Source: Phoronis australis (taxonomy: Eukaryota; Animalia; Phoronida). Taken from it: a stretch of 64,000 nt of DNA. The stretch spans positions 161,208 to 225,207 of the forward strand of contig NMRA01000262.1 of the NCBI GenBank assembly GCA_002633005.1. Reading direction: 5' to 3'. Shown piece by piece: positions 1,265 to 28,593 of this stretch; the first letter of the stretch is position 1; every line of letters begins with the position of its first letter. Under the pieces are notes generated by a model that ran no database searches, was not told the origin of the DNA, and saw nothing but the letters and a program-made list of their open reading frames with translations. The translations under genes were made by a program, and so were the position numbers.

Positions 1265-1297
1265 TGTCAGTTTCATATACTGCTGCACCAACAAACG
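1265..1297 (+). CDS. 33-nt phase 1-1 microexon, receptor stalk (VSVSYTAAPTN)
   Basis: ttcttttccaacAG acceptor, G|GTGAGT donor, length 3n, open in the phase matching the TM exon. Confidence 0.65.
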
Positions 1298-1729: not shown

Positions 1730-1762
1730 TGTAGGTTTTCTGCACTGTTGCGCCCACTGGTG
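1730..1762 (+). pseudogene. 33-nt microexon copy with in-frame TAG (dead or poison exon)
   Basis: tgttttcAG|TG TAG GTT...GGTG|GTAAAT; same length and position within the repeat unit as the intact copies. Confidence 0.5.
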
Positions 1763-2193
1763 GTAAATGAACCAAATAATGATGCAAATTTCAGCATTCA
1801 ATAAACTTGAATTAGTAGGATAAAGTCAAATTCAAAGTTGTAAGATATTTGAATTACATGGTGAGTTTACCAATCTTTATCAAATGCATGAAGGTAGCAA
1901 GTATCCATAAGATAGGTATATCTTAAGCATCACTAGATTACCGTATACAATTTGTTATGAATATCGCATGTAACATTAAGAAAGGTATCTACATAAGCGT
2001 TCAAAGTGGTACCTTCAAATTCAATGCTATTTTTACTAAGATTTCTGCACCTTTGTTTTCCGTACACCAGGTTTCATATTCAGTTATGCTCACAGTAAAC
2101 ATCAAAATTACGTCATTGTCAGCACTGAATGAAGTTAGTTAATTATTAGGATAATGCTCAATTCAAAACTGAAATGGAATTGAATTACATTAA

Positions 2194-3756: not shown

Positions 3757-3963
3757 TTAGCTAGTTTAGTAATGAAGATCACATGCGACCATAAGAAAGT
3801 CATCTTGTTCTTTGACATTCAAAGTAACATCTCAGGAAAGTCAAGCATGTGATTATGAGTGTCAACATTCAAAGTGGTGTCTTCAATGCAAGTTTTGAGG
3901 ATGTTTGCATGATGTGACATGACATATATCAACTTATTAAGATTTGTGCACCATTGCTTTCAG

Positions 3964-3996
3964 TGGCAGTTTCAACCCATATCGTGCCTACTACTA
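3964..3996 (+). CDS. 33-nt phase 1-1 microexon (VAVSTHIVPTT)
   Basis: ttgctttcAG acceptor, A|GTAAGT donor, 3n, open frame. Confidence 0.65.
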
Positions 3997-4379
3997 GTAA
4001 GTAAATAAATTATGGCATGTTCAGCACTGCATACTTTGTAGGGTAATGTCAAATTCAAAATTGTGACACTTTAATTTAATGTGGGGAGTTTACTAATTCT
4101 TAAACAAATGCACAAAGAGCGCCTGTAACCATAGGAAAGGTATTGTGTCTGAAGCATTTTTAATACAATTTCTTTGGGGGACCACTAACTTGTATTATCA
4201 CAAGCCATCAATGTGGTGTTTTCAGTGTCACTTCTCTAGAGCTTGTACCATAGAAAGGTATCCACATACCAGTGAATATTCAAATTGGTATCTTTGATCT
4301 TAAATACAATTTCAGAGAATGTTTCCATGAAAGTGTAAGAAAGTTATCATTTTATGCATTTCTAAACTATTGTTTTCAG

Positions 4380-4412
4380 TGCCTGTTTTATACACTGGTG
4401 TGTCCACAGGGG
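4380..4412 (+). CDS. 33-nt phase 1-1 microexon (xPVLYTGVSTG)
   Basis: tgttttcAG acceptor, G|GTAAGT donor, 3n, open frame. Confidence 0.65.
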
Positions 4413-4637
4413 GTAAGTGAGTTAACAAAATCATGTCATTTTCAGCACTGCATTGACTTGCATTGGGATAATGATGAATTCAAAATTGTAACAGACTCAA
4501 ATTACATGGAGAGTTAAGCAATCTTTAACGAACATATAAAGATCAAATGTAACCAGACGAAAATATCAACCTATGGTAAGCATTCAAACTGGTGTCTTCA
4601 ACGCAATTTCCTGGCATTTCTACACTATTCTTTTCAG

Positions 4638-4670
4638 TGCGAGTTTCACACACTATTGTGCCCACTGGTG
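4638..4670 (+). CDS. 33-nt phase 1-1 microexon (VRVSHTIVPTG)
   Basis: ttcttttcAG acceptor, G|GTAAGT donor, 3n, open frame. Confidence 0.65.
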
Positions 4671-4901
4671 GTAAGTAAACGAAACAAAAGATGATTTTCA
4701 GCTCTGAACTTTACTCTCCTGGGGAAGCAATTTTTTAAATAAATGCATGAAAATTGCGCGTTACCCTGAGGATCATAAAGTTTTAAAAGAAGTACCTTAA
4801 TACAATTTCTCTGGAGGATAACCTGTAACCATAAGAAAGGTATAACAAAATAAAACTGGTATCTTCAATGCAACTTTGGATTTCAACACCATTCTTTTCA
4901 G

Positions 4902-4928
4902 TGTGGATACCATTCACATCCACGCGTG
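4902..4928 (+). CDS. 27-nt phase 1-1 microexon (VWIPFTSTR)
   Basis: attcttttcAG acceptor, G|GTAAGT donor; 6 nt shorter than its siblings but still 3n. Confidence 0.6.
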
Positions 4929-6957
4929 GTAAGTAAACAAAACTCTACCATTTTCAGCTCTGAATGAACGTTTACCAATTCAGAGAAAATAGCAACTTGA
5001 TTAGGTGTTAGAATCTATCTGGCCACTCTGAATGAGCCATACCATGGGTATATAAATAGAGCCACAAACCAGATATTTTTACATTTATTGCCACTTTGTT
5101 TTGTGTGGAAATTGAGGAACAGAGCACTGGCTGACTTGGCTTTTGCACCCACCTTTTGAAACCTTAAAACAATATTGTTCAGTACTTACGGACACTAAAT
5201 ATAGAACCACCTGATAGGAGGTAAAATATTAAATAGACATACTTGGATCCTTATAACAAACTTTTTATCAGTTGCATTGTTCGGAAATGATATTAAATGA
5301 ATTGTTTTTAATCAGGTTTCTTTGGACCAATGTGTAAATAGTCTAATAATTAGTGTTTAAATAGGTGAAGCTCATCGGGCAGTATTTTAACAGGTTCCGT
5401 TAAGTTACATAGTGAATTAACAATATTAACAGATCCACAAACTTCTCTGAAATTTTCCCAAATTGCTTTTTCTTTACATGCTCCCTACTGAAGCATATTT
5501 GTATACAGTTGAGAAATCATCAAATTCATGTTCTTTCGTTCCCCGATATTTCTCCACTTCAATTAAATCAAATGGATTATGGTCTTTCTTCGTATCTGAA
5601 GCCGTACATTTCATACTTTTGGGTGTTCTAGGTATTTACAAGTTTCTAGAGTTTTGTAGGTCCTTGCCTGAGCAGTTTTGAAATTAATTGCTTCCTTTCT
5701 TTCACACTGCTCTCGTCTGCATCCAAAATAAACATCCTTCCACGCTATGGTACAGCTTCATTGCTTTCTTACATTGTCCATGCTATTTTGGCTATAACTT
5801 ATGTCCATATACAGTGACTCATCTCGGGGAAGTTCTTGGCTATGTCTGAGAATCATACATTTCTCTTTGAACTTTTTTGTTCATTGAGATATGAATTGAT
5901 TTGTTAATTATGCTTGTCTTTGTTGCTCTTTATTTTGAATTTATCTTTTAGTGAAAATAAGGTAGTTTGTCATTTCTTCCCACGGTGATGACAATTAGTC
6001 TTGTTGTCAATTTCAGTTTCAAATACCCATGATTTAGGTCATTTTTCATGAATTGCAGACTGGTTGTCTTGGATTTTTCCCCCATTTTAGGTTATTTGAA
6101 TCCATGTCTTTCTCTTCAAATCCAAGGAAAATGTTATTGCGGCGACATAGCCATTTTTTGAATTAATTAAATTTGCTTCTATTTTTGTCACCATGCTGTT
6201 ACTCAGTGGGGTGCGACAGGTGTAGAAACAGCCCTCCTTGTTTGACAAAAGACGTCTGCTCAAGGAATCATTCATGACCAGCTCAATTTATTTTCTTATT
6301 GATTTTGAAGTGTTTACGAAGCATCACGGCCCACGAACTAGATTGTTGATAAGACCCTGGGGACTTTAAAAGTAAGTCGCAGTTTCACACCTGCCTGTTG
6401 CAATGCTTTGCCATAGAAATTATCAAAGAAACTAAAACTTGGTTTAGATCATTATGAAACTGTTTCAGATGAGAAGTGGTCGTTATTACTTGAGATCATG
6501 CTTATAGGTCACAAAGGAGGTCATAAAGTGATCTGCCATATTGTAGAGCTGGGTGTTAAGAAGTGATGGATTGTCATTTTTTTCCAGCCATGAAATCATG
6601 GTTAACAATTTCAGACCATTTTTTACCAGTGAGTGGTCTAAATAAAAAGCTGCATAGTTATGTGACAAAAGGTGGATTGATTTGTTGCCACATTCTCTTC
6701 TGTGGTGGTGGTAAGTGATTCCGTTTGTGTTTTGAAATAATCCTTTCAAGTTTTTCAGTAGTCCGAATCAACAAGTTTGTTTTGTTCGCTATATCTTTCA
6801 ATATTCTGTGTTCTGAAAGTCAGTTCCAACGTTTTAGACGTCATCTGTCTTGTCTATATGTAATTCTTGTTACAAAGTTGGAAATCCTGGAAAATGGGGA
6901 ATGCTTCCATTCATAGAAGTCTATTTGAAACTGATGAGTATAAGAGCCGTGTAGTGT

Positions 6958-7094
6958 TGTAGGAATCAGAAACACACAATTATAAGCGAATAAAATACTA
7001 TATTGAAGCAGACACTTGATGTTGGTATATTGACAAAAATGAGACTAAACTACAGTGATTTCACAAATCGTTATAACTGATAGGTGGCACCACA
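6958..7094 (-). repeat. 3' LTR (TG...CA)
   Basis: Direct repeat of 10305-10441; immediately preceded on the - strand by polypurine tract GGAGGGGGG-TAC (7095-7106). Confidence 0.95.
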
Positions 7095-7144
7095 GTACCC
7101 CCCTCCAAGCGGAGGACTAAGGCAAATCCGAAGTGGGTGAAGAA

Positions 7145-9433
7145 TCACGAAAACGCACGGGCAAGCGCGAAACGGTCAATGATCGTGAAGAGATAGGTCA
7201 TGCCTTGGCTCGCTGGTAGTGGGCCAACAAGATCCACATGGAGACTGCGAAACCTGGCAGCCGGAGAGGGACGCTTTACCAAAGGTGCCCGTGTGTGTCG
7301 ATGTATCTTGGAAGCTTGACAAGCATGACACTCTTTGCACCACCGCCGTATATCACGTTTCATACCTCGCCAGACAAAGCGCTGAGTGAGAGCCTGCTGA
7401 GTAGGGCGAACGCCAGCGTGGGAAAGCCCATGAATACGATCAAAAACAGCACGGGCCCATGTAGAGGGCAAGACAGGTTGGGGCGTGTCAGTGGACGTGT
7501 CACAAAGCAGAGTCGAGTCGCCAAACGGAATATCTTGTAGAGCAAGGCCCGTTGTAGCGGTTCGATATTCCGCCATTTCAGGAGACTGGCCTTGGTCATG
7601 AGCCAGCTCGCGGAAGTCACCAACAGAAAAGATGCTATGGTCACTGGATATGCCATTGATGTCGAAACGGGATAGTGCGTCAGCCACCACGTTAAACTTG
7701 CCTTTAAGGTATCGGATGTCGGTAGTAAACTCAGCTATAAAAGCAAGGTGCCGTGCCTGACGTGGGGAACGCTCACTGCCACTGTGCAATGCTGACACTA
7801 ACGGCTTGTGGTCAGTGTATAACGCAAAAGGTCCGCCCTCTAAAAAATGCCTGAAGTGCTTAACTGCGTTATAGGCCGCCAGGAGTTCACGGTCGAAAGC
7901 ACTGTACTTATGCTCTGTTTCGGAAAGCTTGCGTGAGAAGAAAGCAAGAGGAACCCAAGTACCGTCCTGAAGTTGCGTCAGCTGAACACCGATGGCCTTG
8001 TTAGACGCATCGACCGTAACGCTTGTAGGCGAGGTCGGATGAGGGTGACGCAAGAGCACAGCTTTTTTAAGGGCGTCTTTGGCCTTTTCGAAAGCAGTTT
8101 GGCAGGCAGCTGACCAGGTAATAGCTTGGCCTTTACCACTAGCTTGCGCATGGAGTGGAGTCAGGGCATCAGCGACGTGTGGAATAAAACAGTGATAGTA
8201 GTTCATCAATCCCAGAAATCGTTGCAGCTCAGCACGATTGGTTGGGGGAGCACAATCTTGAATAGAGGCTATGCGATCGGGGAGCGGAAGGATCCCACGG
8301 GCTGTGACGTGGTGTCCAAGGAAAGCCAATTCGGCAGCACCAAAAATGCACTTGGGCTTATTGATGACGAGACCGTTGGAGGACAGTACCATAAAGATCT
8401 GACGAAGATGTTCCAGATGTTCGGCATGCGAGCGGCTGGCCACCAAGATGTCATCGAGGTAGACAAAAGCGAACGAAACGTCCCTGAAAATGCCTTCTAT
8501 AAGGCGTTGGAAAGCCTGGGCAGCGTTCTTGAGGCCAAAGGACATGCGAAGAAATTCCCACAATCCAAAAGGTGTGATTATTGCAGTCTTGGGCACAGAA
8601 GATGGCGCAACCGGAATCTGATGATAGCCCCGAACCAGATCAATTTTGGAGAAAACTTGGCATCCGGTCAGATGGTTGTTGAAATCATGGATATGCGGCA
8701 ACGGGTAGCGGTCATCCGTGGTAGAAGCATTAAGTTGTCTGTAGTCACCACAAGGGCGCCATAGACCACCAGGCTTGGGGACGACATGGAGCAGTGAAGA
8801 CCACGGTGAATTGGAACGGCGAATTATACCCATCTTTTCCATTCGCAGAAATTCATCTTTAGCCGCCGCCAGTCGTTCAGGATTCAAACATTGGGCACAT
8901 GCGTGGACAGGTGGTCCCTGGGTTATGATATGGTGTTCAACACCATGTTTATTCGCCATGGAATCAAAACACGGAGTAAACAGCTCTGAAAACTGTTGTA
9001 ACAAATGTGAGTACTCGTCGTGGGCATGAAAGGAGAGACCCGCAAGGGTCAGTGAAATCGTGTTATGTCGCAGAAGTACAGAGGGATTATCGATAGACAA
9101 AAGGCGCTTGCCCTTGAGATCAATAACTAGGTCGTGGGCAATAAAAAAATCAGCTCCCAGAATCGGGCGAGTAACATCGGCAAGATAAAATTCATGAGCG
9201 TACCGCTGCTTAGGGCTGACCACCACCGAGAGGGTACGGGTGCCCCATTTGTTTATGGAAGTTCCGTTAGCAGCGGAGAGAGGTGCAGAAGGTGGATTGG
9301 TCTTGCGGTCTGTTGCAGAGGCAGGATAAACAGAAACGTCGGCGCCAGTGTCAATTAAAAAATATCTACCAGTGTGTTGGTCAACAATGGAGAACGTGTT
9401 GGAGGTGGAGATGCCGGCCGCTACCACGTTCAA
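7145..9433 (-). CDS. pol: Gypsy pol (protease, RT, RNase H, truncated integrase), accessed by -1 frameshift
   Basis: LIDTGAD protease; [27 protein letters not shown]; VDAS, DRELLA, TDHKPL, ADALSR RNase H; HHCC zinc finger and [12 protein letters not shown], then abrupt stop. Confidence 0.95.
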
Positions 9434-9454
9434 CGGCCGGCTGTGGCGTTTCCC
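9392..9454 (-). promoter_or_regulatory. -1 ribosomal frameshift signal: G GGA AAC slippery site + H-type pseudoknot
   Basis: GGGAAAC (9454-9448) in gag frame, 6-nt spacer, stem GCCGGCCG/CGGCCGGC, loop GAACGTG complementary to downstream CACGTTC (9398-9392). Confidence 0.8.
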
Positions 9455-10275
9455 TGGTTATTTGTCTTGGGTATCGGTGATGCAAACTTGCAGCCAGGCG
9501 GGCATCGACGAGCCTCGGGCCCAAACTTCATGTGGTAGAAGCATACGGTGGAGGAACCCATAAGGGGGCTGGCGTCACCCTGCTGGGAACGGGAACGGCG
9601 TCGGAAACGCTTATCGGCAGAAACCACGTCCACCGAAGCGGACGTGGACTTGGCATTGTCATCATAAAAACCCGAAAACGTTGTCGGACTGGTGGTAGGC
9701 ATAGAGACATGTTGCACTCCGGCAGTACGTGCCTCCCAGATACGGTCAGCGGTCGTAGCAAGGTCCTCTATGCTATTAATGCTGTGGCCCGCCAGGATAG
9801 TGCGAACGTCGGAAGGCAGGTTCGTTAGGAATAAAGCACGTTTTAAAGTCTGGGGGTCATCATTGAGAGCGTTGATACGTCTCATCAGAGCGGTGGGACG
9901 TTTGTCACCCAGGCCATTGAGGTTCAAAAGCTCAGAGTCCTTCTGCGCCTGGGACTTTCCAAAAGCGTTGATGAGCGCGGACTTCAATGCGTTATACTTG
10001 TTTGTGAGTGGTGGGTGGAGGAGTATAGCCTGAACCTCGTCGGCTGTGGTGACATCAAGGGCACTCACCACATAATCATATTTTGTCTGATCTTGCACAA
10101 TCCCTTTCGTTCCAAACTGAGCCTCGACTTTGGCAAACCAAACTTCGGGCGATTTTGTCCAAAAGTCTGGCAACCTGATGGATACCGCGTTTACCTGAGT
10201 TGTTTGCATTGCAAGCGTCTGGAGAGTTGAGGCGAGGTCAGTAACAAGCTTTGTATCACTATGTCCCTCAGCCAT
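9430..10275 (-). CDS. gag: Gypsy gag-like protein
   Basis: 281 aa; RLPDFW..PEVWF..VEAQF N-terminus and C-terminal CFYH..FG.EA.RC...C motif typical of this Gypsy group. Confidence 0.92.
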
Positions 10276-10291
10276 TTTAAGTGTTCACTGT

Positions 10292-10303
10292 TCGAGGTCA
10301 CCA
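10292..10303 (-). promoter_or_regulatory. primer-binding site, tRNA-Trp-like
   Basis: TGGTGACCTCGA 1 nt after the 5' LTR; matches the canonical Trp PBS TGGTGACCCCGA with one G:U pair. Confidence 0.7.
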
Positions 10304-10304
10304 A

Positions 10305-10441
10305 TATAGGGATCAGAAACACACAATTATAAGCGAATAAAATACTATATTGAAGCAGACACTTGATGTTGGTATATTGACAAAAATGAGACTAAACTAC
10401 AGTGATTTAACAAATCGTTATAACTGATAGGTGGCACCACA
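10305..10441 (-). repeat. 5' LTR
   Basis: Direct repeat of 6958-7094; ends TATA instead of TACA on the - strand. Confidence 0.95.
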
Positions 10442-10849
10442 GTGTCATCAAGGGGAATACTTAACACACATTTTGTAAATCATGTCACAAATTCATGAAC
10501 TCAGTTATTTCTAATCATTAGTAAGAATTGCGACATATCTACTTTTTGAAAGAAACATAATTTGTAGAAACGGATGTTCTGAAAAATTGTGTAAACCAAA
10601 ATACAATCTGCATGGGAATTCATTGGTGGACATTTTGCTGGATGTGTATGGTAGTCAAGGTTGTGAACTTGTGAACCACTAGCCTTTCACTGGCATGATC
10701 TTGCATAATCTCACCAAACCAGCACGCAGTTATCATCGCAGAATGCACTGTATTACCACCACATATCAAGGCTTTGCCTGCTTACTTTGACCAATGCATC
10801 AAATTTAATGTAAAAATTTAAATTAAAAGTTTCTGGAATTTATGGAAGT

Positions 10850-11744
10850 TTTTAAATGTCCATATATTTTTATATGTGGGCACATTATGCCACCATCTTT
10901 GTCCGTCCATCCGGCATGTGCTGTTGTATTTCCAAAACCCCTTGATCTGTGTTGATGAAATTTTACAGATATGGTCCTATCATGGCTGAAACGGCATGAG
11001 CAAATTGACGGACGAATCCGAGAACTGTTGTGCAATTTTAATTTTGTTTACTTTTGCCTTTGCTGTTCGTTAATGGATTCTCATGAAACTTGGCAAATAG
11101 ACATCTATTAGGGAGATGATGCCACCTTCATGTTTGCAAATGGATTCAACGTATTTTGCAGCAGCTAGTACCCATTGTTACTGTTTTCAAGTGTTTTTGA
11201 AAATTTGTGATTGTGTTCTTACTGGGAAGAGCATGGTTGACGATTTTTAGACAGTTTGGACTACTGTGGCATCCCCTAGTGGCAGTTTGTGTTTTCACAT
11301 CTACAGCTATTTCTTCTTGTAGGTTCATTGATAAATTTGGCAAGTGTATTTCTATGAAGGTACAAAAGGTGACAATGTTAGATGTACCTGACTACCACTG
11401 TGCCCGCTTATTTTAATATTTTTACGATCTTGGCAGGTATACCATTGAGGAGAGCATTACTAACATGCTTAGCAATTTCTAGAGGCTATTTTATGTTTAC
11501 TGGCATTGCTGCATTTTGTGGTCGACAATAAATGATACCCACAACATGAACTACAATAACTTTAATAACTCTTAGAGATTTTAAAAACGTCTGATGTGTC
11601 GTGAAACAGAGAGAGATTTTATCAGCAAATATGCAAATTATACTGGCGCGGAATGCTTCAAATAATAATCATCCCTTGTATCTGCGCCATATGCAATGCA
11701 TACGCCTGTATGGGCACATAGCAACGCTCCACGTTGCTCTTGTT
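10850..11744 (+). mobile_element. HINE/DINE-1-like non-autonomous Helentron, family 1, copy A
   Basis: 5' subterminal IR (ATATGTGGGCACAT), GTCC microsatellite, internal repeats, 3' TGGGCACAT + GCAACG..CGTTGC palindrome + CTTGTT. Confidence 0.75.
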
Positions 11745-11850
11745 TTATGTCTAATTATTTGCGTCAAGTACTCGACCTAGATGTATGATAAAGGCCGTCA
11801 TATAATACATGTTAAATGGCTGACATAAAGTTGCATTGCTTTCCTTCCAG

Positions 11851-11947
11851 CTTCAGATGTTGGCTTGGCTGTGGGAGCAGCGTTGGGCGCAGTATTTGTT
11901 GTTGCTGTTATCGTCTTGCTCATTGTCTTCAGAAAGGAGATTTACAG
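11851..11947 (+). CDS. transmembrane exon of single-pass receptor (SDVGLAVGAALGAVFVVAVIVLLIVFRKEIYR)
   Basis: ttccttccAG acceptor (phase 1), hydrophobic run followed by RK stop-transfer, AG|GTATG donor (phase 2) compatible with the exon at 19604. Confidence 0.85.
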
Positions 11948-12604
11948 GTATGAATTGTATTACAGACTTTACAGTGTGTATTCTTTTGTCACAAGATGTC
12001 ATTTGTTTTTCCAATTTTGGTCCTTAAGGGGACTTGAATTATTTTATGTTCATCGCTGATTTATAGTCAAGAGTCCAGGGTTAATGGACTTTTCTAAATG
12101 TATTCTTTGACTTATATTGACACTTGCATACTTCATCCTATAAATGGTTGCCATTGATGCCTAAAATCTATGATGATGAACCAAAACTGTGTACTTAAAT
12201 ATTGTATTCATGTATGTGCAGTTTATGTAACTAACTCTCCTAATCTCATCTGTTGTCACTCCTCTCACAGCACTTTAATTAGTCTCCACTTATTCTGCTC
12301 AAAAATAATTACTAAATGTTATTTTCCATTTTGTTTTAAAAGCTGATAACCTTTCTGGAAATAAAAGAAACTTTATCAAATATTAGGTTAAGCAAAATCA
12401 ACTTACTCAGAGACTGAAGATTTAAGAGTTCGAAAGTTTTGGATTGTATTCTAGTGTCCTTTATCAATGAAAGGTGAAGGGACATCCTGGTTTCCCGCCA
12501 TTCTGTTCTCTGGAAGTAGTATGATATAAGAGATAGGTGGAAGCTGCAATCCCTGATCTCGATCCATACCTTCACCGAGACTAGGAAAAACCTTTCTTCA
12601 ATCT

Positions 12605-13824
12605 TTTTATGCATATTTATATGTGGACGCATTATGCCGTCATCTCCGTCCGTACGGGCGGCGTCCGTCCGGCGTCTGGCGTCCGGCGTCCGCTGCTCCA
12701 AAACCCTTTGACATATGTTCATGAAATTTGGCACATATGTTCCACTCATGAATGGGACGGCATGTGCGAACTTTCGGACGGATCCGACTACCGGTGTGCC
12801 CCCTAGTGGCAATTTTAGTTTTTTACGCTTACCTTTGTATCTTCAAAAGTCCTGAACGGATTTTCATGAAATTTGGTATGTAGGCACTTATTAGTGAGAT
12901 GACGCCATCCTCCCGTTTTCAGATGGAATCGACATAGTTTGCGCCACCTAGTGGCCATTTTTAGTGTTTTCGAGTGTGTTTTTGTGCGTCAACCCCTCTA
13001 TCAACCAAACCGCTCAAAGGATGATTGTGAAAATTGGCATGTATATGATTACTATGTAGAAGACGGTTGACGATGATTTTCCGACGATTTCGACTACTGT
13101 GGCGCCTCCTAGTGGCAGTTATGTTTTTTTTCGCCTGTGGCTGTATCTCCTAAATCGTTCGCAGGATTTTTACAAAATTGTGTAAGTATATATATATGAT
13201 GTTAACAACAGAACATGACGACTTTCGGACGGATTTGACTACCGGTGTGCCCCCTAGTGGCAATTTTAGTTTTTTTACGCTTACCTTTGTATCTTCAAAA
13301 GTCCTGAACGGATTTTCATGAAATTTGGTTTGTAGGTACCTATTGGTGAGATGACGCTATCCTCCCGTTTTCAGATGGATTCGACATAGTTTGCGCCACC
13401 TAGTGGCCATTTTTAGTGTTTTCGAGTCTGTTTTTGTGCGTCCACCCCTCTATCAACCAAACCGCTCAAAGGATGATTGTGAAAATTGGCATGTATATGC
13501 TTACTATGTAGAGGATGGTTGACGATGATTTTCCGACGATTTCGACTACTGTNTTTTTTTTTTTTTTTTGCACCTATGGCTGTATCTCCTAAACCGTTCG
13601 CAGGATCTTTACGAAATTTAATAAGTGTAATTATATGATGTTAACAACAGACGATGACCTAGCCTATTGAGGAGACAATGACCATGCCTTTCCATTTTGC
13701 AAAGTACAACAAACTACATATATGTCCTCTACTGGCCACTTTATGGTACCAATAAACAACCCTAGAAGGATACCGTATACGGTGCAATTGTGGGCGCATT
13801 TCAACGCTCTGCGTTGCTCTTGTT
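12605..13824 (+). mobile_element. HINE family 1, copy B (best preserved; ~450-bp higher-order repeat of three ~150-bp subunits)
   Basis: ATATGTGGACGCATTATGCCGTC..(GTCC)n start; block at 12771 repeated at 13222; end GTGGGCGCATTTCAACGCTCTGCGTTGCTCTTGTT. Confidence 0.85.
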
Positions 13825-13990
13825 CAAATTTTGTTTCATGAAATCTACACAGTACAAACCATATTAATAGTGAACTAAAATTTTCTTCATCTTTATTTCA
13901 TGTGTCATCCATATTGTGTGCTAAATTAGTGATGAACTACTGTACATTGCTGAATGGGAATGTTGTTGTCAGCAATGCAAGTCATTGAAA

Positions 13991-14387
13991 CTGGGCTTGG
14001 AATTTTCCGCGGAAACGCGGATTTCCGCTTTTTTCAAATGTTCTGTCCGCGCATTTTATTATATTTCCGCGTAAAAAAAATCGGATTAGATATAAAATTT
14101 CTGCGGCAAATTCCTTTCTTACCGCGGCATTGCAGACGACGTTCACCTCGAAAAGCGAAGTTGCTCTTTATGTTTCGGAGGAACGTGAATTGTCAACATT
14201 GCAGGGGCATGTGGGATAGCGTGGTGGGATTTTCAATGGCATTGCTACTGATGGCGGTTACGTTTTTTTTGTCCTCCCGATTTTTGTCGGGGAAAAGTTC
14301 ACATGGACCATTTCAAGGCTGGGTAGCGCGCATGATTTGGGCCGTAAAAGTTTCCGCGTTTTTTGTCATTGGTCATTCCAAGCCCTG
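13991..14387. mobile_element. hAT-like MITE with 6-bp TSD
   Basis: TIRs C(T/A)GGGCTTGGAAT / ATTCCAAGCCCTG, subterminal TTCCGC repeats, TTGAAA on both sides (13985-13990, 14388-14393). Confidence 0.75.
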
Positions 14388-15018
14388 TTGAAAGAGTGCC
14401 ACCTCTTTTTTTATGGCAACATTTCCTTCAGGAAAAATGATATTTCCGAAGAATCCGTGGGGGCAAAAATCGTCAGCAGAAATAAATGTTGAATGCAGAG
14501 CATAACTGCATACATTGTACATAAATATTGAATACAGAGCATAACTGCTTGCATTATACATAAATGGGTTGAGAAAGTTTGCTACACTGCTGATTTCGTT
14601 CCTGTGCAAAGAAAACTGGTTTGATTTGAATCTCTAGTAGATAATGGTTGTGTCTCTTTCCATGAAACTAGAACAAGGAACAAATGTTGCTTAGTAAATG
14701 AAACACTGATATGGGATATCAAATAGCACTTGTAAGTGTATATAGTTGAGTAGATGAGATATCATGTTCATAGTCACCAGTCTCAAACTATGAAGTTATG
14801 TTGAGTACTTCCTCTTTCCATGAACAACAGTTGATGAAGAAGTCATGTGGTTGACATAGATTTTGATCATATATTCACCTTTCCCTTTATACATCATGCT
14901 GGTTCTTGTACATTTGTGAATAAGGATTGCACCTTGAAACATGTCAGCAATATGAAGCTGAGCACTAATTGGCTTTTTACTTGGCTTTTTACTTTACGTT
15001 GCTCTTCCATCAAGTTTG

Positions 15019-18000
15019 TTATTTGGCAGAATTCCGAAAATACCGCCAAGTATGTTGGTCTGACATCAAGTTTTTTTTGTTGTGTTTGTTCACTCTCTAC
15101 AGGTCACAATTTTCATCCGATTTTCTCGAAATTTGCACACAACGTCCTGTTTTCGTGTAATTTCGCCAAGTGTCGCTCCTCCGAGTGCTCTCGCACTGTT
15201 GCCAGTTTACCGGGTGCGTGAATAAGACTGCAGAGTATTTCTTTCTGATTTGTTGGCTAGTCACATGAAAGTCATCATGTTGTTCATAATCTCCGCCTTC
15301 ATCGTCGTCGTAGTCGTCCTCCCCATCGTCCTGTTTTCGTGTAATTTCGCCAAGTGTTGCTCCTCCGAGCGCTNTGTGTTTGTTCACTCTCTACAGGTCA
15401 CAATTTTCATCCGATTTTCTCGAAATTTGCACACAACGTCCTGTTTTCGTGTAATTTCGCCAAGTGTTGCTCCTCCGAGCGCTCTCGCACTGTTGCCAGT
15501 TTACCGGGTGCGTGAACAAGACTGCAGGCTATTTCTTATTGATTTGTTTGCTAGTCACATAAATGGTATCGTGTTGTTCATAATCTCCGCCTTCATCGTC
15601 ATGATCGTCGTCGTCGTCCTCCCCATCGTCCTGTTTTCGCGTAATTTTGCCAAGAGTCGCTCCTCCGAGCACTCTCGTTTTTTTTGTTTGTTTGCACGAT
15701 ACAAGTTGCAATTTTCGTCAGATCGTCACGAAATTTACACATAACACGTAGCTGTGGAAGTACTGGAAGCCTATCGTTTTTTGTCATAATGGGATCCAAG
15801 ATGGCGGCTGTGGTGGCCATTTTGTTTTCATTTTAAGATTCAAATGCTTCTGGAGGGTACAATTTTTACGTACAAAGCTGAAAATCGGCGCAATCATTGA
15901 ACAGGACGTGCGCTGCATGTATACTGTAAATTACTTATTTCTGGTTAAAGAAGGCGGAAATATCGGCACTTGCGCATGTGCACCTCGATTTCAGGAACAA
16001 AAACGTTTTCTACTGTAGAGGGTGCATTATAGGACCAATTGCTTCGACATTTTTCAGGTATTAGTTTCTTGTGACATGCTTATTATTCAGAATTGAAAAA
16101 CCGGAAGTTGCTTTCAAGATGGCGGATCTAGCGCATGTTGACCCATTTTCAGTCGTGCTGGAGTGCCATTTTAAACGGGAAGAGAAAAAAACCTGATTTT
16201 TTGCATGTGGATTCTCTGAGGTATACTCTTTCAAATGACCAACAATTTTTTTCTCAGACTTGCCGTTTTCGAGTTATTTGACTTAGAATTTCAAAAAAAT
16301 GCAAAATTTGATTTTTTTCAAAAAATTTATGGAATTAGGCAATACCACTAGTTTAGATAGAGTTTTGAACAGGCTTTCAGAAGATGTTTTCCATTTTTTG
16401 CTAGGACGTTTACTTTTCGAATTATTCGAGATTTTCTGATAGGGCTGTTCCTTTGTTGAACGCTCTTGCTGCATTGATGTTGGTTTAGCTTCTAGAGTGT
16501 AGCCTATTTCTTGCTAATTTATGATATCTAAATGCTTCGTATGAATGTTATGATGTTGTTCAGCATATGATCACCATCGTCATCATATTTGTCATCTTCG
16601 TCATCATCTCCGTCGTCGTCTTTTCAGTTAATTTCGCCAAGTATCGTTCAAGACTGTAGCCTATACTTCTGATGTCTGGCCTCTACGTTCGTCTTGTGAA
16701 TGTTTTCATTACTTGAATTGTTCATCATCGCCACCATCATGGTCATATTCATCATCTTCGTCATCATCTCTATCGTCGTCTTTTCTGTTAATTTCGCCAA
16801 GTGTTGCTCCTGGGAGCGCTTTCATTTTTTTGTTTGTTCGCACGATACAGGTCGCAATTTTCGTCACACAAGTTGTACATCTATGAGTACAGGAACCCTA
16901 TTGTTTTTTGACATAAATGGATCCAAGATGGCGGATATAGCGGCCATTTTGTTTCCAATTTCAGATTCAATTGCTCATAGAAGCCGTACAGGGCTGAAAA
17001 TCGGTAGAAATATTGAACTATCCAGGTATTACAAATCCACAAGAAATTATTCAGTTCCTATCAAAGATGGCGGAAATATCAGCCATGGCGCATGCGCACT
17101 TCGATTTTATTCAAAAAACGTTTTCTCCAGTAGAGGGCGCATTATTGCACCAATTTCTTCGAAATTTTTCACGTATTTTTTACTACTAGCTATTATTCTA
17201 TTTAAAAAACCAAAAGTTGTTTCCAAGATGGCAGATCTGGCGCATGTTGACCCATTTTTAGTCGTGCTGGCGTGCCATTTTAAACGGGAAGAGAAAATGA
17301 CTTGAATTTTTGCATGTGGATTCTCTGAGGCATACTCTTTCAAATGGCCTGTAACAATTTTTTTTTCAGACGTACCGTTTTTGAATTATTTTACTTTGAA
17401 TTAAAAAAAATGCAAAATTTCATTTTTTCGAAAAATTTACGGAAAGTTGAGAAACCATCAATTTAGATAGAGTTTTGAACGGGCTTTCAGAATATGCTTT
17501 CCATTTTTCGCTAGGACGTTTACTTTTTTAATTACCGTATTCACCGTAATCGCCCATGCCCCTATATGCACCCCCCCACACGTTTTCAGACTTGCTGAAA
17601 TAAGCACCCAGTCTATGAACGTGTACATGCGAGCAATAACGTACCTACAGTCCTAAAACTCGGTTACAGTAACCTCTTCAGTTTATCAAAAAAAATTTTG
17701 CACGGGTCTTCTAGACCACCAGTGGCACTGCTACGTTTGCATTTAGCCGTGACTATACACTTGAAAGTAACGCAGCGCTTCAAAAAGAACGCAACGGCAT
17801 TGCTACTCTCGTGACGACCGTGTCCCACTATGGTCTGACCTTTCAGTAAAGACACATCGACTGTCTCATGAATAAAAATAACTCGGTGTTAAACACACGT
17901 GGCCAGGAAGCGCGCGCTACATAAATCACATATATGAACCTGTCATCAAAGACATTAGTCAGTAACTATCCATTCATGAAACGGGTAGCATAGCATCGGT

Positions 18001-19225
18001 AAGAAATGAATATTGGCACTAATTTCCGACAATTTCTTATACTATAAAACATGTTTGCATTATTTTTGAGATGGATTGTTTGATTAACCATAATTGGTGT
18101 TTTTAAGCCGAATATCTGATAGAATGACAACTGACAATGAATGCTTACACACCCTTACACCAAAAAATAACTGTCAGATAGTTATGTACGCATCCAGCTA
18201 TACGGCGACTAATGTGGGCCTTACCGAGACAAAAGTCTAACGTTTTTAGCACGAGACCGGCAAGTGCTGAATGAAACACGCTCTGGTTTAGGCCTACTGC
18301 TTGTGCAAATTTCTTTAGACACATTGCACATCTAGATCGTTAGATTGCGTGACTCTGGCCAAAAGACGGTCTCTGCTTTGGCAAATGAACTCTGGTGACA
18401 CGCATGCGCTCGCTCACTCACAAACACAGACAAACTTCAAAACAAACGTCACGTGACAACAATGTGTGTTCGTCCAGACATTTTTCTCGTCGTGTTGCCG
18501 ATCATACATGTAGATGGCACGATGTTGCACAGATTTGTACTTAAACCTGCCGTCAATCCAGACGCCACGGGAAATTAAAATAAAATCTTAGGGACGCTTC
18601 TTAGAAAACTTAATGAGGATTTCAGGTAATTTGCTTGAGTCAAAACTATTTTTATTAAAGCATATCGAAGTCGGCGATTTCAAGGCAGTCAGTCGGCGAG
18701 TTTTCGCCCTTGGATTTTAGTACAATTTTCTGTAAAATGATCGTAATTTAGCAGCAATGTTTGATAGCAATGCACCACAGTTTTGTTGAAAGTCTTTCAT
18801 AGATTACATATACGTCTCAGAGCGTAAATTTGATGAATCTTAGTTTCCGATTTCACCCGTTTCGGAGACCGGGGTTCAACCGCCTTAGGTTATAATAAGC
18901 GCCCCCCTTGAACCGAACTTTTCTAAGTGCCCTGGGCGGTTATTACGGCGAATACAGTATTCGTAATTTTCTGATAGCGCTGTTCCTTTGTTTAGCGGTC
19001 TTGCTGCTTTGATGTTGGTTAAGCTTCTATTGAACAAGACTGTAGCCTTTTTGTTACTGATTTATGACATCTAAGTTCGTCATATGAATGTTATGATGTT
19101 GTTCATCTTCATCACCATCGTCATCATATTTGTTATTATAAGTTTGACTGTGCTTCCACTCCAAGTTGGAGTGAGTGTCCACTCCAAGTTTCCAAGTTTG
19201 GGCAACAGGGAGTTGCATTTATTTT
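15019..19225 (+). mobile_element. HINE/DINE-like element, family 2, with ~1.1-kb internal duplication and nested MITE
   Basis: 5' TTGGC..GCCAAG inverted repeat; repeated AATTTCGCCAAGTG / CATCGTC / CAAGATGGCGG blocks (15797 vs 16924, 16115 vs 17224); 3' CCAAGT + GCAAC..GTTGC hairpin in a T-rich site. Confidence 0.6.
17535..18957. mobile_element. Tc1/mariner-type non-autonomous DNA transposon, copy 1
   Basis: TIRs CCGTATTCACCGTAAT / ATTACGGCGAATACAG, TA TSD; inverted homolog at 59034-60429. Confidence 0.85.
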
Positions 19226-19603
19226 GAGTTGAATGCTTGTGAGTTCAGTGACACCCAATGTCTGCACTATAAGCATTTATGAAGATATTACCGTATTTTA
19301 AGAAACTAAAAGTTCCCATTGTATGAATGAAGGTTGGTCTTGTAATCAAATATGGACATTAAAAAATGAAAATACCGAAAAGTAGGGAATGGGCATTAGA
19401 CAGTCGAACATTAGCTTTACCTACCAAGCAAGATGTCACTGTGTCCACACAAATGAACATCTGTCTGTTTTATTTTAGTTTCTACAGGCATTTTAGTTAT
19501 CAGTGGTGGTGCTCAGTTAAAACAGCTGTGGCTTGTATTTTCAGTTTCTGTATCCCTTAATTTGTCTTCACAATCTGACAAGTGTTGGTTTGCTTGTTCC
19601 CAG

Positions 19604-20150
19604 GAAATTGTGTGGTGCACCTATATCGCGACCAAAGTCAGCAATTTCTGAAGCCGAGCTTGAAGACAATCCACTGTACGAACAAGAACTTGAGGCTAGC
19701 AATGGCTGTAAAAGCCACAAACAGGACTCCCCCTATGAGAACATAGGCAAGTCCAAATCCAGCTGCAAGAACAGTGGTAAGACGTACGAGGAAATTGCCG
19801 ATGGTGGGAGATTGGGTCATGAACAAATCAGAAAGAGTCAGGAAGGAATTCTGGGACATTTTTATGATGAGATTCCTGGTGAAAAAAAGAAAACAAATCA
19901 AACTCCTGCCGCTTCATGCGGGGACTTATCATCAGTCATAGAACAATTTTATGCTGCTGTGGGTGATGACAATGAACAATCCGTCCCTGCGCCACCTGTT
20001 GTTTTAGATGATAAAGAGACTAGTGATGGTAATGATAATGATGATGATGATGATGATGAACCAGTGGAATATGCTGTGGTGGACCTGGAGAGAAAGAGAC
20101 AGGAGAGAGAAAGAAAGAAAACCGATGTTTGTGAGAATCCCAAGGCATAG
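19604..20150 (+). CDS. terminal exon: cytoplasmic tail with multiple tyrosine signalling motifs
   Basis: ttgttcccAG acceptor completes AG|G Arg from the TM exon; NPLY, PYENI, TYEEI, FYDEI, FYAAV, VEYAVV; stop TAG at 20148-20150. Confidence 0.85.
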
Positions 20151-22338
20151 ATACATGCAAGTAAGGACTTTTTATCCTCAAAATCTCATCAAAGTTGTCA
20201 GTTTGGTTGAATGCTGCACCAAAATGTCAGTATTAAAGCTAAATAGCTTCAGTTTGTCTACAAACAAATGTTAGTACTAGTTACATGAGGTTACCCTTAG
20301 TAAGTTTAGTGAGACATTTAAGTGATGAAATATTTTTACCATTTTTGCCTGCTACTCATATTTCACCAAAGACTTTTCAAAGTGGAAGTGTCACAAATCA
20401 GTGCATTTTTACTTTGAATTAAAATACGGTCGGTGTATTGCTAATCATGTCAGCGATTATACTGAAACATTAGTTAGGGCGAGTCGATGTACAAGTTCAC
20501 ACCTCACGAGCCAATTTTATCAAAGATTGGATTTCTAGATGTAACTGAAATCATCGCGTGGATGAAGATAATAGTCAAAACTGCATTGGGGTATGCTTGG
20601 TCTACTTTGTTGCTAGTGAGGAGTTTTTGTATGAATATTGACTTGCCTGCATATATTATAAATGTGTATTCTGTAATCTGTCTCAGCTTAAATAATTGTT
20701 CCTTTATGTTTTTGCTCAGCTTGTGTTTTGTTGTATTTTTTCATGGACATTTGATGTCTTGTATTTTGAAAAAAGTCTTCAAAATCCTTCCAACATTTTG
20801 TTGGGGGAGTCACTGGTTTGCATGTACTGGTTGGGTGAGGGTGTCACTTTTTATTTTTCAAAAGTTCAAGTTATTGCAGCAGTCAAGTTTCACCAATCTA
20901 GAACACCACATGGTGAACAGGTGAAATTTTATTTCCTCATTTTTGTCAAAAGATCTGTAGCACCAAGTGCTTATTCACCTTGTTTAAGTTCTGTACCATA
21001 ACTCCAGTTGCACAAAGATTTGAAAAATCACAATTATTAGCAATTTTGTTAGAAGAGCTTGAATGAAAAAGGACAATTTTGGCAATTGTTTTTTAACCAA
21101 ATTTGTGAGATTGTGGGAAAATAGTCGTTGACAGACTTGCACCACTGTCCACTGATTGTTCTTGTTCCCTAGGCTGCATTGTGTTTATTCTCACACATTG
21201 TGTTCATTCTCACACATTTTTGAAATCAACCATCAATCTCAAAAGTTATGTGACCCGGAGATGTAGTGTTTTAGTTGTTGTGGAGAAATGAATTTGCTGT
21301 ACAAACCTGTGTGTCCAACCCTGCATGGTTATTAACCATGTTCTCAACTTTCTTCACAGACTGCTCTTCCAAAGCAACAGTAAAATTAGTCGGATTATTT
21401 GAAAAACAGTTTCCAACAGATATAGTGGTGAATTAGTAAATGAATGAATCAAGGCATTGAGATCATATAAGCAAGAATTGTTAGTCTTCATCTATGGAGT
21501 GGGTATTAAGACTTTTAAAAACACTTAGTTATAAGTATATGAATGTTTAATTTAGTTATGTGTAGCGCTGTGATATACGCAAAATAGCTTGTTGCTGACT
21601 AAAAACAGCAGCTTTGCCATTACTGTGATTTTCTATTTGCTACCAACAAAATGTGTGTCTCTGAAATTCCACAGACAATAGTCACATGGGTCCTGCATTT
21701 TGAGAACCAGTTTATTGTCTGTTTTTCAGTGGAGAAAACGGGTTCTCAAAATGCAAGTCCCTGTAAGGGACTATTACTATTTGGAGCATTACCCCCAATG
21801 TAGTAAGCCTTGAAATTTTACTACTATTTTGTTCAGACTGTAGAATTTTTACTGTTCTCTGTACAAGAATAGCAATCATCCTATACTGTACTGCAGTTGT
21901 TGAGATATTTGGAAATGACCAGTTAGTCATTAAGAATGAAAAATGACTTATCATGACTTATCACGGAGAAAGGGTCTTTAGACCTTTTAGCATGTTACTC
22001 TTTCTTTATCTTTCTCTGATGTATACTTACTATTCCTATTGTTATAAACTGGGACCAAAATAGATCCATTTGTTGATTATTTTGAGAGAAAGAATCCAAA
22101 TGGTATTTTTTTATTATTTTGTTTGAATTCTGATTTAGTAAAGTGAAGATATCTTTTTTAACTTGCATTAAAGTGCTGAGTTTTTTAGCTATTTTTTAGT
22201 TTCATATGTTAAGTTAAATCTTTTTGTGCTTCTGTGACCTCTGTTAGCAAATGTATTTACATAAGGCAGATCTGTATCTGAAAATATATCTGGGACTGAC
22301 ACCTGTTTTATAAAAGATCCAAATCTGATCATAGGCAG

Positions 22339-27495: not shown

Positions 27496-28593
27496 TTACT
27501 TATAGTCGTGTCTTATTCTTAGATATCGGCAATCCTTCATGTCTTCCCAATCCGCGTCATTCAGTGTTGCATGAGCGCTCATCTCTTCAGGTGGAAATTC
27601 ACGATCTAACTGATATTCGTGCAGCCGCCGAAAAACGCTCCTGATCACCCGTTGAAATTTGATGGACGCCTGCTTTCTGGCAAACTGAGTTGATACTTCG
27701 TCAGCAGATGAACCAAATATACACTTAGGGTTCAATTCCGATTCGCAGAGCATTGATGACAAGCCGTCTCCCAACGCATCGAGTTTCGATCGACGGTGTT
27801 TCTCTACTAGTTGCCTAGCTACAGAGCTTGCTGCTGTCTTTTCGTGTTGCGACTCCTCATGATCCGAATTATATTTCTTTAAATTTAAATCAGATTCTGC
27901 AAATTCCAATCCACTCACAGAGTCATTTTTCTTGTTTTCCACTGCGGAATCTCCCACGCTATCGTCATTTTTTTCGTTAAGATCGTCTGCCAATACGCCC
28001 TTCATGCCATTCTTAGTGTCTGTGTCAGATTTTCCCGCCATTTGTTCTTTGTCGCCACAGATACCTTGACATTTGTCAGGAATTTCGTCCAAACTATCGG
28101 CAAATGTCACTCGTTTTCCTGGTGATTTTGAACAGATATCAACAGATAATCTCGGTAATGTGTTACTTCGAAGTAAACTTTTTGTCGGTTTTAGTACAAC
28201 TTGACTGCGCGATCTCTTCAACTTTTTCTCATGAGCAGATGATTTGTTCGTCTGCTTCATCGACTCTCCATCTTCCTGTCGAGGAGCAATTGGTGTCAAC
28301 TTTTCTCTTCTAAGCGTCCTCGGTGAATAGACGGAATTGTTATCTCCAACTTCAAAACTTGAACTTTTTGACGACGGAATTCCACAGCGCGGGGAGAACC
28401 CATGGTCGTGGTTTTTATCAACGACAATGGGAGGTAGATGTGCTGCGTACTTTTTTTCAAATTTCGCCTGAGATTTGCTTAAATTATCTAGCGCAGTATT
28501 AGATTGGTTTGACAGTCTCGTCAAAGTGTTCTGCAACACCCGGTCCTCTTGTGTATTTTGCACACGTAATCTCCTGAGTCTCGGAGAATCCAT
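27496..28593 (-). CDS. intronless 365-aa coiled-coil protein, CCDC190-like architecture
   Basis: ATG at 28593 (MDSPRLRRL..), N-terminal helix N..E...L...L..L...Q, low-complexity middle with KRVTF, C-terminal MKDCRYLRIRH; family assignment from recalled motif pattern only. Confidence 0.75.
   Translation of the reverse strand: MDSPRLRRLRVQNTQEDRVLQNTLTRLSNQSNTALDNLSKSQAKFEKKYAAHLPPIVVDKNHDHGFSPRCGIPSSKSSSFEVGDNNSVYSPRTLRREKLTPIAPRQEDGESMKQTNKSSAHEKKLKRSRSQVVLKPTKSLLRSNTLPRLSVDICSKSPGKRVTFADSLDEIPDKCQGICGDKEQMAGKSDTDTKNGMKGVLADDLNEKNDDSVGDSAVENKKNDSVSGLEFAESDLNLKKYNSDHEESQHEKTAASSVARQLVEKHRRSKLDALGDGLSSMLCESELNPKCIFGSSADEVSTQFARKQASIKFQRVIRSVFRRLHEYQLDREFPPEEMSAHATLNDADWEDMKDCRYLRIRHDYK

Follow-up and report, generated by a model that had tools for sequence, protein, structure and literature searches.

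Among the closest described systems, the CED-1/Draper/MEGF10 receptors have an EMI domain and EGF-like repeats on the outside and a tail with an NPxY motif followed by SH2 motifs; in Draper at least five tyrosines are phosphorylated, and the ITIM isoform Draper-II binds Corkscrew, the SHP2 ortholog (excerpts of PMC8092387 and PMC9388098). In the Fester family of Botryllus, 26 of 38 genes skip one to three stalk exons in a genotype-specific manner, the skipped exons coming after the last domain and before the membrane segment, and the FcoR tails carry ITIM and YxxI/L/V core motifs (excerpts of PMC12582321). The Alr proteins of Hydractinia have an Ig ectodomain and ITAMs and are encoded in a cluster of 41 loci (excerpts of PMC9546547). 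Short stalk exons are described for CADM1/SynCAM1, where the 33-bp exon 9, encoding 11 residues, sets shedding (excerpts of PMC5385562), and for CD46, whose STP exons are short, rich in Ser, Thr and Pro, optional and placed before the membrane exon (excerpts of PMC2118878). Flatworm MEGs are defined by a run of at least four consecutive exons shorter than 70 nt and divisible by three, together with micro-exons amounting to half of all exons (excerpts of PMC7653826).

The locus reported here lies in a 64-kb window of Phoronis australis (the whole stretch of 64,000 nucleotides analysed) and is compared with each of these systems as far as the cited excerpts describe them. Its product resembles CED-1/Draper/MEGF10 in being single-pass and without a catalytic domain, and in having a cytoplasmic NPxY with downstream SH2-type tyrosines; it differs in having no canonical ITAM and no detectable homology of the tail. 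Activating-type and SHP2-type sites are placed in one constant exon, unlike in Draper, where they are on alternative tails. With the invertebrate type I receptors of Botryllus it shares stalk exon skipping (Fester) and a tyrosine tail (FcoR); in Botryllus, however, two paired genes are described, Fester with the variable stalk but without tyrosine motifs and FcoR with the tyrosine tail, whereas here one gene has both. It also differs from the Botryllus pair in having no hemITAM; no second tyrosine-motif tail was found in the 64-kb window, and contigs of RNA sample X1 diverge from the window by ~1.4%. As in Hydractinia Alr, a single-pass invertebrate receptor has a tail too divergent to align, with ITIM-type motifs, but the tail has no ITAM and is the only tyrosine-motif tail in the window. 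Short optional exons rich in Ser and Thr (and Pro) adjoin the membrane exon as in CD46 and in CADM1 (exons 8, 9 and 10), whose exon 9 is also 33 bp long; CADM1 has three optional stalk exons, whereas seven visibly duplicated units, two of them dead, are found here; there is no homology to either protein, and glycosylation and shedding are predicted. The succession of short exons, each a multiple of three in length, and the variants that arise through skipping recall the flatworm MEGs, but here the micro-exon run is a cassette within a signalling receptor.

Gene structure and expression

The part of the gene that encodes the membrane segment and the tail has the following features:

11851-11947, plus strand: membrane (TM) exon, 97 nt, phase 1/2
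11948-19603, plus strand: intron of 7.66 kb, full of repeats
19604-20150, plus strand: cytoplasmic tail exon, acceptor TCCCAG, 181 codons past the junction codon, TAG stop at 20148-20150
20151 to at least 20900, plus strand: 3' UTR

The membrane exon (acceptor AG at 11849-11850, donor GTATGA) has a mean hydropathy of 3.1 over its best 19 residues and encodes GxxxG-type glycines as well as a basic stop-transfer end. The original prediction had taken this exon and the exon at 19604 to be phase-compatible, which was borne out by a single open frame running through both, and it depended on reads across the 11947-19604 junction. RNA was available as contigs (X1) and as three raw runs (X2, X3 and X4), of which 18-19% of the reads were examined, and the junction was present in 35 raw reads from the three runs and in one contig. 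The sequence past 11948 was equal to window positions 19605-19634 at 30 of 30 letters in 4 reads of X2, 10 of X3 and 21 of X4, and in one X1 contig 29 of 30 letters past the membrane exon were equal to the same positions. An Ile-to-Lys change close to the start of the tail was seen in one X1 contig. According to the junction reads the intron is absent from the mRNA, and coverage inside it is repeat-derived.

RNA reads cover the membrane exon in all four runs, and both of the read variants listed for it (11882 and 11909) are synonymous. In the tail-exon bin, first mates on the minus strand reached depths of 5.0, 7.0 and 20.3, against 0, 0 and 0.27 on the plus strand; minus-strand first mates represent plus-strand RNA in most stranded libraries. 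The bin 20269-20900 in the 3' UTR had depths of 4.7, 4.8 and 19, the same as the coding part of the exon. This is almost certainly a real, expressed and spliced gene, and the data support a product that crosses the membrane once and has a non-catalytic tail.

Tyrosine motifs of the tail

The tail contains six tyrosines, each given by the position of its codon:

19677, plus strand: NPLY (NPxY), near the membrane
19734, plus strand: SPYENI
19785, plus strand: YEEI
19863, plus strand: YDEI
19950, plus strand: YAAV
20070, plus strand: VEYAVVDL, after a poly-Asp run and before the basic end

The six motifs originally claimed (NPLY, YENI, YEEI, YDEI, YAAV and VEYAVV) were all found at their positions. 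Every tail tyrosine sits in a motif, five having Ile or Val at +3 (YxxI/V) and the sixth being the NPxY. When the 181-residue tail was shuffled 200,000 times, at least five YxxI/L/V motifs arose with P=2.1e-4 and all six tyrosines fell in a motif with P=1.5e-5, values that are generous since the motif list was picked after the sequence was seen. The motif content of the tail is non-random. We know of no counterpart of the six-tyrosine tail in CADM1 and CD46.

A strict ITIM (I/L/V rule) is present at one of the six tyrosines and is not rare, as 11% of shuffles give one (P=0.11), while the rule [I/L/V/S]xYxx[I/V/L], as worded in excerpts of PMC9546547, fits two of the six, SPYENI and VEYAVV. VEYAVVDL, with hydrophobic residues at -2, +1, +3 and +5 and Asp at +4, agrees with the six-position SHP2 N-SH2 consensus at five positions (excerpts of PMC8007070), and a regular expression written for this consensus gave a shuffle P of 0.0037. 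For the YEEI sequence, binding of pYEEI to the c-Src SH2 domain has been measured, with a KD of 160 nM (excerpts of PMC10065799). The Tyr-to-Tyr gaps are 19, 17, 26, 29 and 40, and the NPxY tyrosine is located ~31 residues past the membrane segment. Searches with the ITAM rule Yxx[I/L]x(6-9)Yxx[L/I] and the hemITAM rule [E/D][E/D][E/D]xYxxL gave neither in the tail; YxxI motifs are at least 13 residues apart, an acidic triplet is nowhere followed by YxxL, and both readings are ruled out by motif spacing. The gene product is probably a tyrosine-docking receptor.

Searches for relatives

A search of 1.84 billion representative proteins with the tail exon gave one match (E 2.4e-06). This match was rejected as a relative, being a 1065-aa repeat protein with a score summed over short matches of 26-44% in which the motif spacing is not kept. 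Proteins of 318-2000 aa yielded 847 candidates, none of which reached E<=1, which is weak evidence, and no match to the tail exon was obtained in metagenome contigs, PDB sequences or Pfam above the cut-offs. The orphan status given to the receptor in the original prediction thus holds for the databases searched (representative proteins, metagenome contigs, PDB and Pfam), and so does the claim of a tail without catalytic domain, which had no Pfam family above cut-off and no PDB sequence match. The ~180-residue tail is probably disordered, as had been proposed; the single-sequence AlphaFold model has a pTM of 0.17, which is weak when taken alone and too poor for fold comparison.

These results bear on whether the gene is a diverged CED-1/Draper/MEGF10/PEAR1 engulfment receptor whose EGF-like repeats would be encoded before the window starts, a reading that we consider unlikely. 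The membrane-near NPxY, the several SH2-type sites after it and the distal SHP2-type site are arranged as in Draper, but there is no ITAM (a spacer of 13 against the 6-9 required), the tail has no sequence similarity to any protein in the searches above, and the exons seen beside the membrane exon are Ser/Thr-rich, the five intact stalk units described below being without cysteine. Since such receptor tails diverge fast, the missing tail similarity lowers membership of the Draper class only modestly.

A duplicated micro-exon array

Upstream of the membrane exon, seven tandem-duplicated micro-exon units of 27-33 nt, five intact and two broken, were identified at 1265-4928:

1265-1297, plus strand: m1, 33 nt, phase 1/1, intact, Ser/Thr/Pro-rich, open frame between AG and GTGAGT
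1730-1762, plus strand: m2, 33 nt, broken, with TAG in frame and a weaker donor
2063-2095 (limits approximate), plus strand: m3, broken, acceptor AG lost, placed by alignment
3964-3996, plus strand: m4, 33 nt, phase 1/1, intact, absent from the joints listed
4380-4412, plus strand: m5, 33 nt, phase 1/1, intact, absent from the joints listed
4638-4670, plus strand: m6, 33 nt, phase 1/1, spliced onto the membrane exon
4902-4928, plus strand: m7, 27 nt (6 nt shorter, in frame), intact, skipped among the junctions listed

The first reading of this DNA had placed the ectodomain upstream of the window, which is partly correct, but stalk micro-exons are located at 1265-4928 and at least one of them is spliced to the membrane exon. 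All seven units are homologous with conserved splice flanks, and each of the five intact ones is in phase 1/1 and has a length that is a multiple of three; as the units arose by duplication they are not independent, and these frame-keeping lengths are not counted as a (1/3)^6 chance. Ser, Thr and Pro make up 22 of the 48 residues encoded by the intact units, and cysteine is absent from all five. Where measured, identity between units is 47-70% in the exons and 62-83% in the upstream flanks; diversifying selection as a reading of this difference was set aside, the flanks being constrained pyrimidine tracts. Differences among four units (six pairs) number 23, 26 and 20 by codon position, an even distribution that does not point to purifying selection acting on the micro-exon peptides. 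Units m4-m7 form four consecutive intact candidate micro-exons in the DNA, with m6 alone seen spliced. A 123-nt candidate exon in phase 1/1 (6588-6710) was not counted, as it had no joint among those listed. No comparable micro-exon stalk was found in the literature searched, which included few subscription papers, so that absence from print is not implied.

Splicing onto the membrane exon

Three upstream partners of the membrane exon were observed in the reads, all in frame: m6, an m1-like exon and an exon outside the window. The GT..AG joint 4670>11851 from m6 was seen in three X3 reads with three different starts and in none from X1, X2 or X4. The m1-like partner was seen in four X3 reads, with 27 of 30 letters equal to m1 (agreement 0.83, mixed), and is either a divergent allele of m1 or a paralogous unit upstream. 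Micro-exon use was thus seen in seven reads, from X3 only, among the loose ends listed, with a mapped joint for m6 only; in X3, micro-exon junctions constitute ~7 of 9 reads at the 5' part of the membrane exon. The third partner, which skips the array, was found in 14 X4 reads and one X1 contig, the contig having 138 further letters upstream within the skipping transcript. About 30 letters of this outside exon are visible, and its last 10 residues are Ser/Thr-rich by hand translation. Short Ser/Thr/Pro-rich optional exons are therefore positioned directly before the membrane exon, with both inclusion (7 reads) and skipping (14 reads and 1 contig) observed. Partner use differs between samples and between two genotypes, with a Fisher P of 9e-6 to 0.048 by the allocation of reads beyond those listed; at two sites the genotype of X4 is not that of X2 and X3, which makes tissue and genotype effects on splicing inseparable. 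The splice-variable micro-exon stalk, overlooked in the original prediction, is a more unusual feature than the tail.

The array may nevertheless be neutral in a real receptor, representing a tandemly duplicated intron segment with a small symmetric exon whose inclusion does no harm in an unstructured stalk. The two dead units of seven, the substitutions spread evenly over codon positions, and inclusion reads that number only seven and all come from X3, while X4, the run with the best coverage, has 14 reads without the array, fit such an array, which we nonetheless regard as rather doubtful: the ~7 of 9 X3 reads are more than a trace, five units retain open frames, strong donors and Ser/Thr/Pro content despite their 47-70% exon identity, and the sole length change among the intact units (m7) is in frame.

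The composition of the stalk also raises the possibility of a transmembrane mucin or adaptor, for which MUC1, CD43 and LAT/PAG are the comparison systems. The outside would then be a glycosylated rod lacking any folded domain for binding, and the protein would serve as a tyrosine scaffold or be anti-adhesive. All extracellular pieces seen are Ser/Thr-rich, the 10 residues that end the outside exon among them, and the juxtamembrane part of the tail has a Cys, a possible palmitoylation site; on the other hand, the outside exon is visible for ~30 letters only, and the 138 further upstream letters of the X1 contig are, if coding, too long for a LAT-type stub. This reading is improbable.

The difference in isoform use between the two genotypes would suit a gene from one of the polymorphic families of self/non-self receptors, such as Botryllus FcoR or Hydractinia Alr. 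In the excerpts cited above, these families are heavily alternatively spliced, and their tails cannot be aligned but contain ITIM and YxxI/L/V core motifs. However, no second tyrosine-motif tail was found in the 64-kb window, and the X1 contigs (three pieces) diverge from it at just 12 of 871 exon and UTR letters (~1.4%), and we hold membership of such a family to be quite improbable.

Other features of the window

The intron preceding the membrane exon contains a bystander:

6958-10441, minus strand: recent LTR retrotransposon of Ty3/gypsy type

Pfam matches to RT, RNase H and integrase zinc-finger were found in this element, whose LTRs show 3 mismatches over 138 positions and which is flanked by GTGT on both sides. 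The neighbouring ORF 27496-28725 had no relatives in the searches, and the window gave no Rfam match. A HIT-family exon was also found.

Proposed function and significance

We favour, with somewhat better than even confidence, a kinase-less PTB/SH2-docking receptor, likely a recognition receptor, with a stalk that varies as duplicated micro-exons of 27-33 nt are spliced in or left out. Its outside would function in the manner of CADM1, CD46 or Botryllus Fester, and its inside in that of Draper or FcoR. Ligand binding by outer domains, presumed to be encoded upstream, would cluster the receptor, and a Src-family kinase would phosphorylate the tail tyrosines in their acidic context. The membrane-near NPLY may then bind a PTB adaptor of GULP/CED-6, Dok or Shc type, the YENI, YEEI and YDEI sites may bind SH2 domains of Grb2, Src or Nck type, and the distal VEYAVVDL may recruit a phosphatase of SHP2/Corkscrew type, giving a single tail the on and off arms that are found across Draper isoforms. 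The Ser/Thr/Pro-rich micro-exon peptides are predicted to be O-glycosylated, and could alter stalk height or susceptibility to shedding, as do stalk exons in CADM1, CD46 and Botryllus Fester. An immune or engulfment role has slightly less than an even chance, and that the stalk variation is functional is a tentative proposal.

Receptors with kinase-less tyrosine-motif tails are common in invertebrates, and the tail alone is thus ordinary. What is added to the known systems is one gene joining a tyrosine-motif tail to a duplicated micro-exon stalk of seven units, with evidence of sample-dependent splicing. Exons of 27-33 nt are missed by gene finders, and cassettes of this kind may therefore be common in genomes without having been counted. 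At its most speculative, and with little probability, the locus would represent a new invertebrate receptor family in which a growing and decaying array of 11-codon exons, chosen singly or combined per individual, writes a code of stalk glycosylation and shedding above a tail with both activating and inhibitory tyrosines. If true, this would be a Dscam-like system in miniature, diversifying receptor geometry instead of the binding site. If micro-exon inclusion alters shedding or reach, as the excerpts cited above describe for shedding and the 33-bp exon of CADM1, it would be a simple invertebrate way of tuning a recognition receptor by individual or tissue.

Gene structure and transcription

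The window is animal-type DNA with a GC content of 34-51% and long introns full of repeats. The exons encoding the membrane segment and the cytoplasmic tail of the receptor share a single continuous frame (phase 2 to 2), bearing out their proposed phase compatibility.

11851-11947, plus strand: membrane exon (acceptor AG, donor GTATGA)
19604-20150, plus strand: tail exon, starting after a pyrimidine tract, with its stop codon at 20148-20150

The membrane segment reaches a 19-residue mean hydropathy of 3.1. The tail exon encodes 181 residues, 36% of them charged, with a mean hydropathy of -1.16, and it contains no further hydrophobic stretch. A Pfam search gave no family at cut-off and a PDB sequence search no match, in agreement with the original prediction of a tail of ~180 residues lacking a catalytic domain. 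An AlphaFold single-sequence model, on its own weak evidence, had a pTM of 0.17.

RNA data with the same species label comprised one contig set (X1) and three raw runs (X2-X4), 18-19% of each raw run being used. In the bin 19608-20268, depth in the three raw runs was 5.0, 7.0, and 20.3 for minus-strand first mates and 0, 0, and 0.27 for plus-strand ones; minus-strand first mates represent plus-strand RNA in most stranded libraries, so the tail exon is most likely transcribed on the plus strand. Read depth was level as far as 20900, and the 3' UTR is thus at least 750 nt. Junctions were searched by comparing the RNA with 3800-12330 at 93% likeness. Loose ends 3' of the membrane exon, that is, the parts of reads running past the mapped segment, were identical to 19605-19634 (30/30 letters) in 4 reads of X2, 10 of X3, and 21 of X4, and one X1 contig matched at 29/30 letters, the single difference changing Ile to Lys. 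The membrane-to-tail junction, whose absence from reads had been named as refuting the receptor, is therefore real.

Both variants listed in the membrane exon are synonymous. Variant 11882 was carried by 13/21 reads of X4 (0/3 in X2, 0/9 in X3) and variant 11909 by 19/20 (0/4 and 0/13), and since neither occurs in X2 or X3, X4 represents another genotype.

Tyrosine motifs of the tail

The six predicted tyrosine motifs were all recovered: one of the six tyrosines belongs to NPLY, and each of the other five is followed at +3 by Ile or Val. With a motif set picked after the fact, 200,000 tail shuffles gave P=2.1e-4 for at least five YxxI/L/V and P=1.5e-5 for all six tyrosines lying in a motif; in the six-frame background, 994 of 4295 have a hydrophobic +3. 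Grb2 prefers YxN. By measurement, pYEEI is a ligand of the c-Src SH2 domain (PMC10065799). Two tail sites match the ITIM rule as quoted in PMC9546547; a stricter rule leaves one, a result that 11% of shuffles also produce by chance. A better case is the distal site: its residues (Val -2, Ala +1, Val +3, Asp +4, Leu +5) satisfy the SHP2 N-SH2 consensus given in PMC8007070 at five of six positions, and an SHP2-type pattern written for this analysis had a shuffle P of 0.0037. Successive tyrosines are 19, 17, 26, 29, and 40 residues apart, a spacing that rules out both an ITAM (spacer of 13 vs the required 6-9) and a hemITAM.

Relatives and neighboring sequences

No relatives of the tail were found among 1,835,955,588 representatives, in a word-indexed search of longer proteins, or in a metagenome scan; the sole match among the representatives was rejected, being a repeat protein whose score was summed over short stretches. 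The 64-kb window holds no second tyrosine-motif tail. A neighboring ORF (27496-28725, minus strand) of 409 codons in a single open frame, with a CRYLR motif close to its end, likewise had no relatives and no Pfam family above cut-off. This hints at sparse database coverage of the group to which the organism belongs, and 'orphan' therefore tells little about novelty.

Other features were observed in the window:

50-400: minisatellite array at the window start, 38-nt unit
6958-10441, minus strand: LTR retrotransposon of the Ty3/gypsy type, young, in the interval that separates the micro-exon array from the membrane exon
12337-14320: intronic repeat
38867-38992 and ~39874-39943, minus strand: a histidine-triad gene, represented by two exons
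44000-45100: broken-up reading frames resembling, by eye, a decayed reverse-transcriptase-type element
35080-35770, 40170-41070, 41350-41570, and 52530-52660: further minisatellite arrays, by eye

The LTRs of the retrotransposon differ at 3/138 positions, its target-site repeat is GTGT, its pol frame stops shortly past the integrase zinc finger, and reads with other flanks reveal copies elsewhere. RNA coverage of the intronic repeat was very high (450-1600) and one-sided (first mates minus) in each of X2-X4; its probable source is copies within many transcripts, and look-alikes recur by eye elsewhere in the window. The exon at 38867-38992 scored 26.6 bits against Pfam DcpS_C (cut-off 24), and we take the gene to be HINT3-like.

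A duplicated micro-exon array

The original prediction overlooked a micro-exon array at 1200-5000, where an intron-exon-intron unit is present in seven copies (m1-m7) coding for pieces of the outer stalk.

1265-1297: m1, 33 nt, phase 1/1, intact
m2: broken by an in-frame stop
m3: broken, acceptor lost
3964-3996: m4, 33 nt, phase 1/1, intact
4380-4412: m5, 33 nt, phase 1/1, intact
4638-4670: m6, 33 nt, phase 1/1, intact
4902-4928: m7, 27 nt, phase 1/1, intact

The five intact units encode 48 whole residues (17 Ser/Thr, 22 Ser/Thr/Pro, no Cys). Differences among four units are spread evenly over the codon positions (23, 26, and 20), and purifying selection on the unit peptides is thus not visible.

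In RNA reads the membrane exon has three upstream partners. The first is m6, through a GT..AG joint in three X3 reads with three starts, seen in X3 only. The second, in four X3 reads, is a sequence sharing 27/30 letters with m1 (agreement 0.83), with two synonymous changes and one Ala-to-Thr by hand translation. This divergence exceeds the background of X1 against the window (12/871 letters in three contig pieces; P=0.008), so the sequence is either a diverged allele or an additional, eighth unit located upstream. The third, in 14 reads of X4 plus a single X1 contig, is an in-frame Ser/Thr-rich exon end; as it has no match anywhere in the window with up to three mismatches allowed, its exon most likely lies upstream of the window, the whole array being skipped. 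Partner use differed between X3 and X4, with a Fisher P of 9e-6 to 0.048 depending on assumptions about 12 further loose-end rows; tissue and genotype are confounded in this comparison. Among the joints listed for X1-X4, m4, m5, and m7 were not used. The stalk intron also holds a candidate exon of 123 nt (6588-6710, plus strand), open and of phase 1/1, with strong splice signals; it is not Ser/Thr-rich and is likewise absent among the joints listed.

Proposed mechanism and comparison with known systems

Structure, expression, junctions, and motif content were observed. The protein would be a type I surface receptor with outer domains, unseen here, carried on an O-glycosylated stalk. Clustering may lead to phosphorylation of the tail by a Src-family kinase, and NPLY could bind a PTB adaptor, which in CED-1 binds NPxY independently of phosphorylation (PMC9388098). 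The middle tyrosine sites may serve as docking points for adaptors or kinases with SH2 domains; a phosphatase of the SHP2 type may be recruited by the distal site. One extra unit of 9-11 residues beside the membrane might change the height of the stalk, its cover of glycans, or its accessibility to proteases. There are direct precedents: CADM1 exon 9 (33 bp) is necessary and sufficient for shedding (PMC5385562); in CD46 the STP segment is varied through splicing (PMC2118878), and in the Botryllus Fester family 26 of 38 genes skip one to three stalk exons in genotype-specific patterns (PMC12582321).

In its way of working the inner part would resemble Draper/CED-1/MEGF10 (PMC8092387) or the FcoR and Alr tails, and the outer part the stalks of CADM1, CD46, or Fester. 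The gene cannot be assigned to any of these families, because tests for an ITAM and for homology were both negative and its outer domains are unseen. The flatworm MEG definition, as given in PMC7653826, applies solely to m4-m7 as a run in DNA, and no match for tandem micro-exon stalks was found in a literature search mostly outside subscription journals. The gene is real, expressed, and receptor-type, without database relatives, and its tail is a good yet ordinary specimen of its kind. On read counts that are thin, the part worth following is the micro-exon stalk, which is duplicated, partly decayed, and variable between samples.
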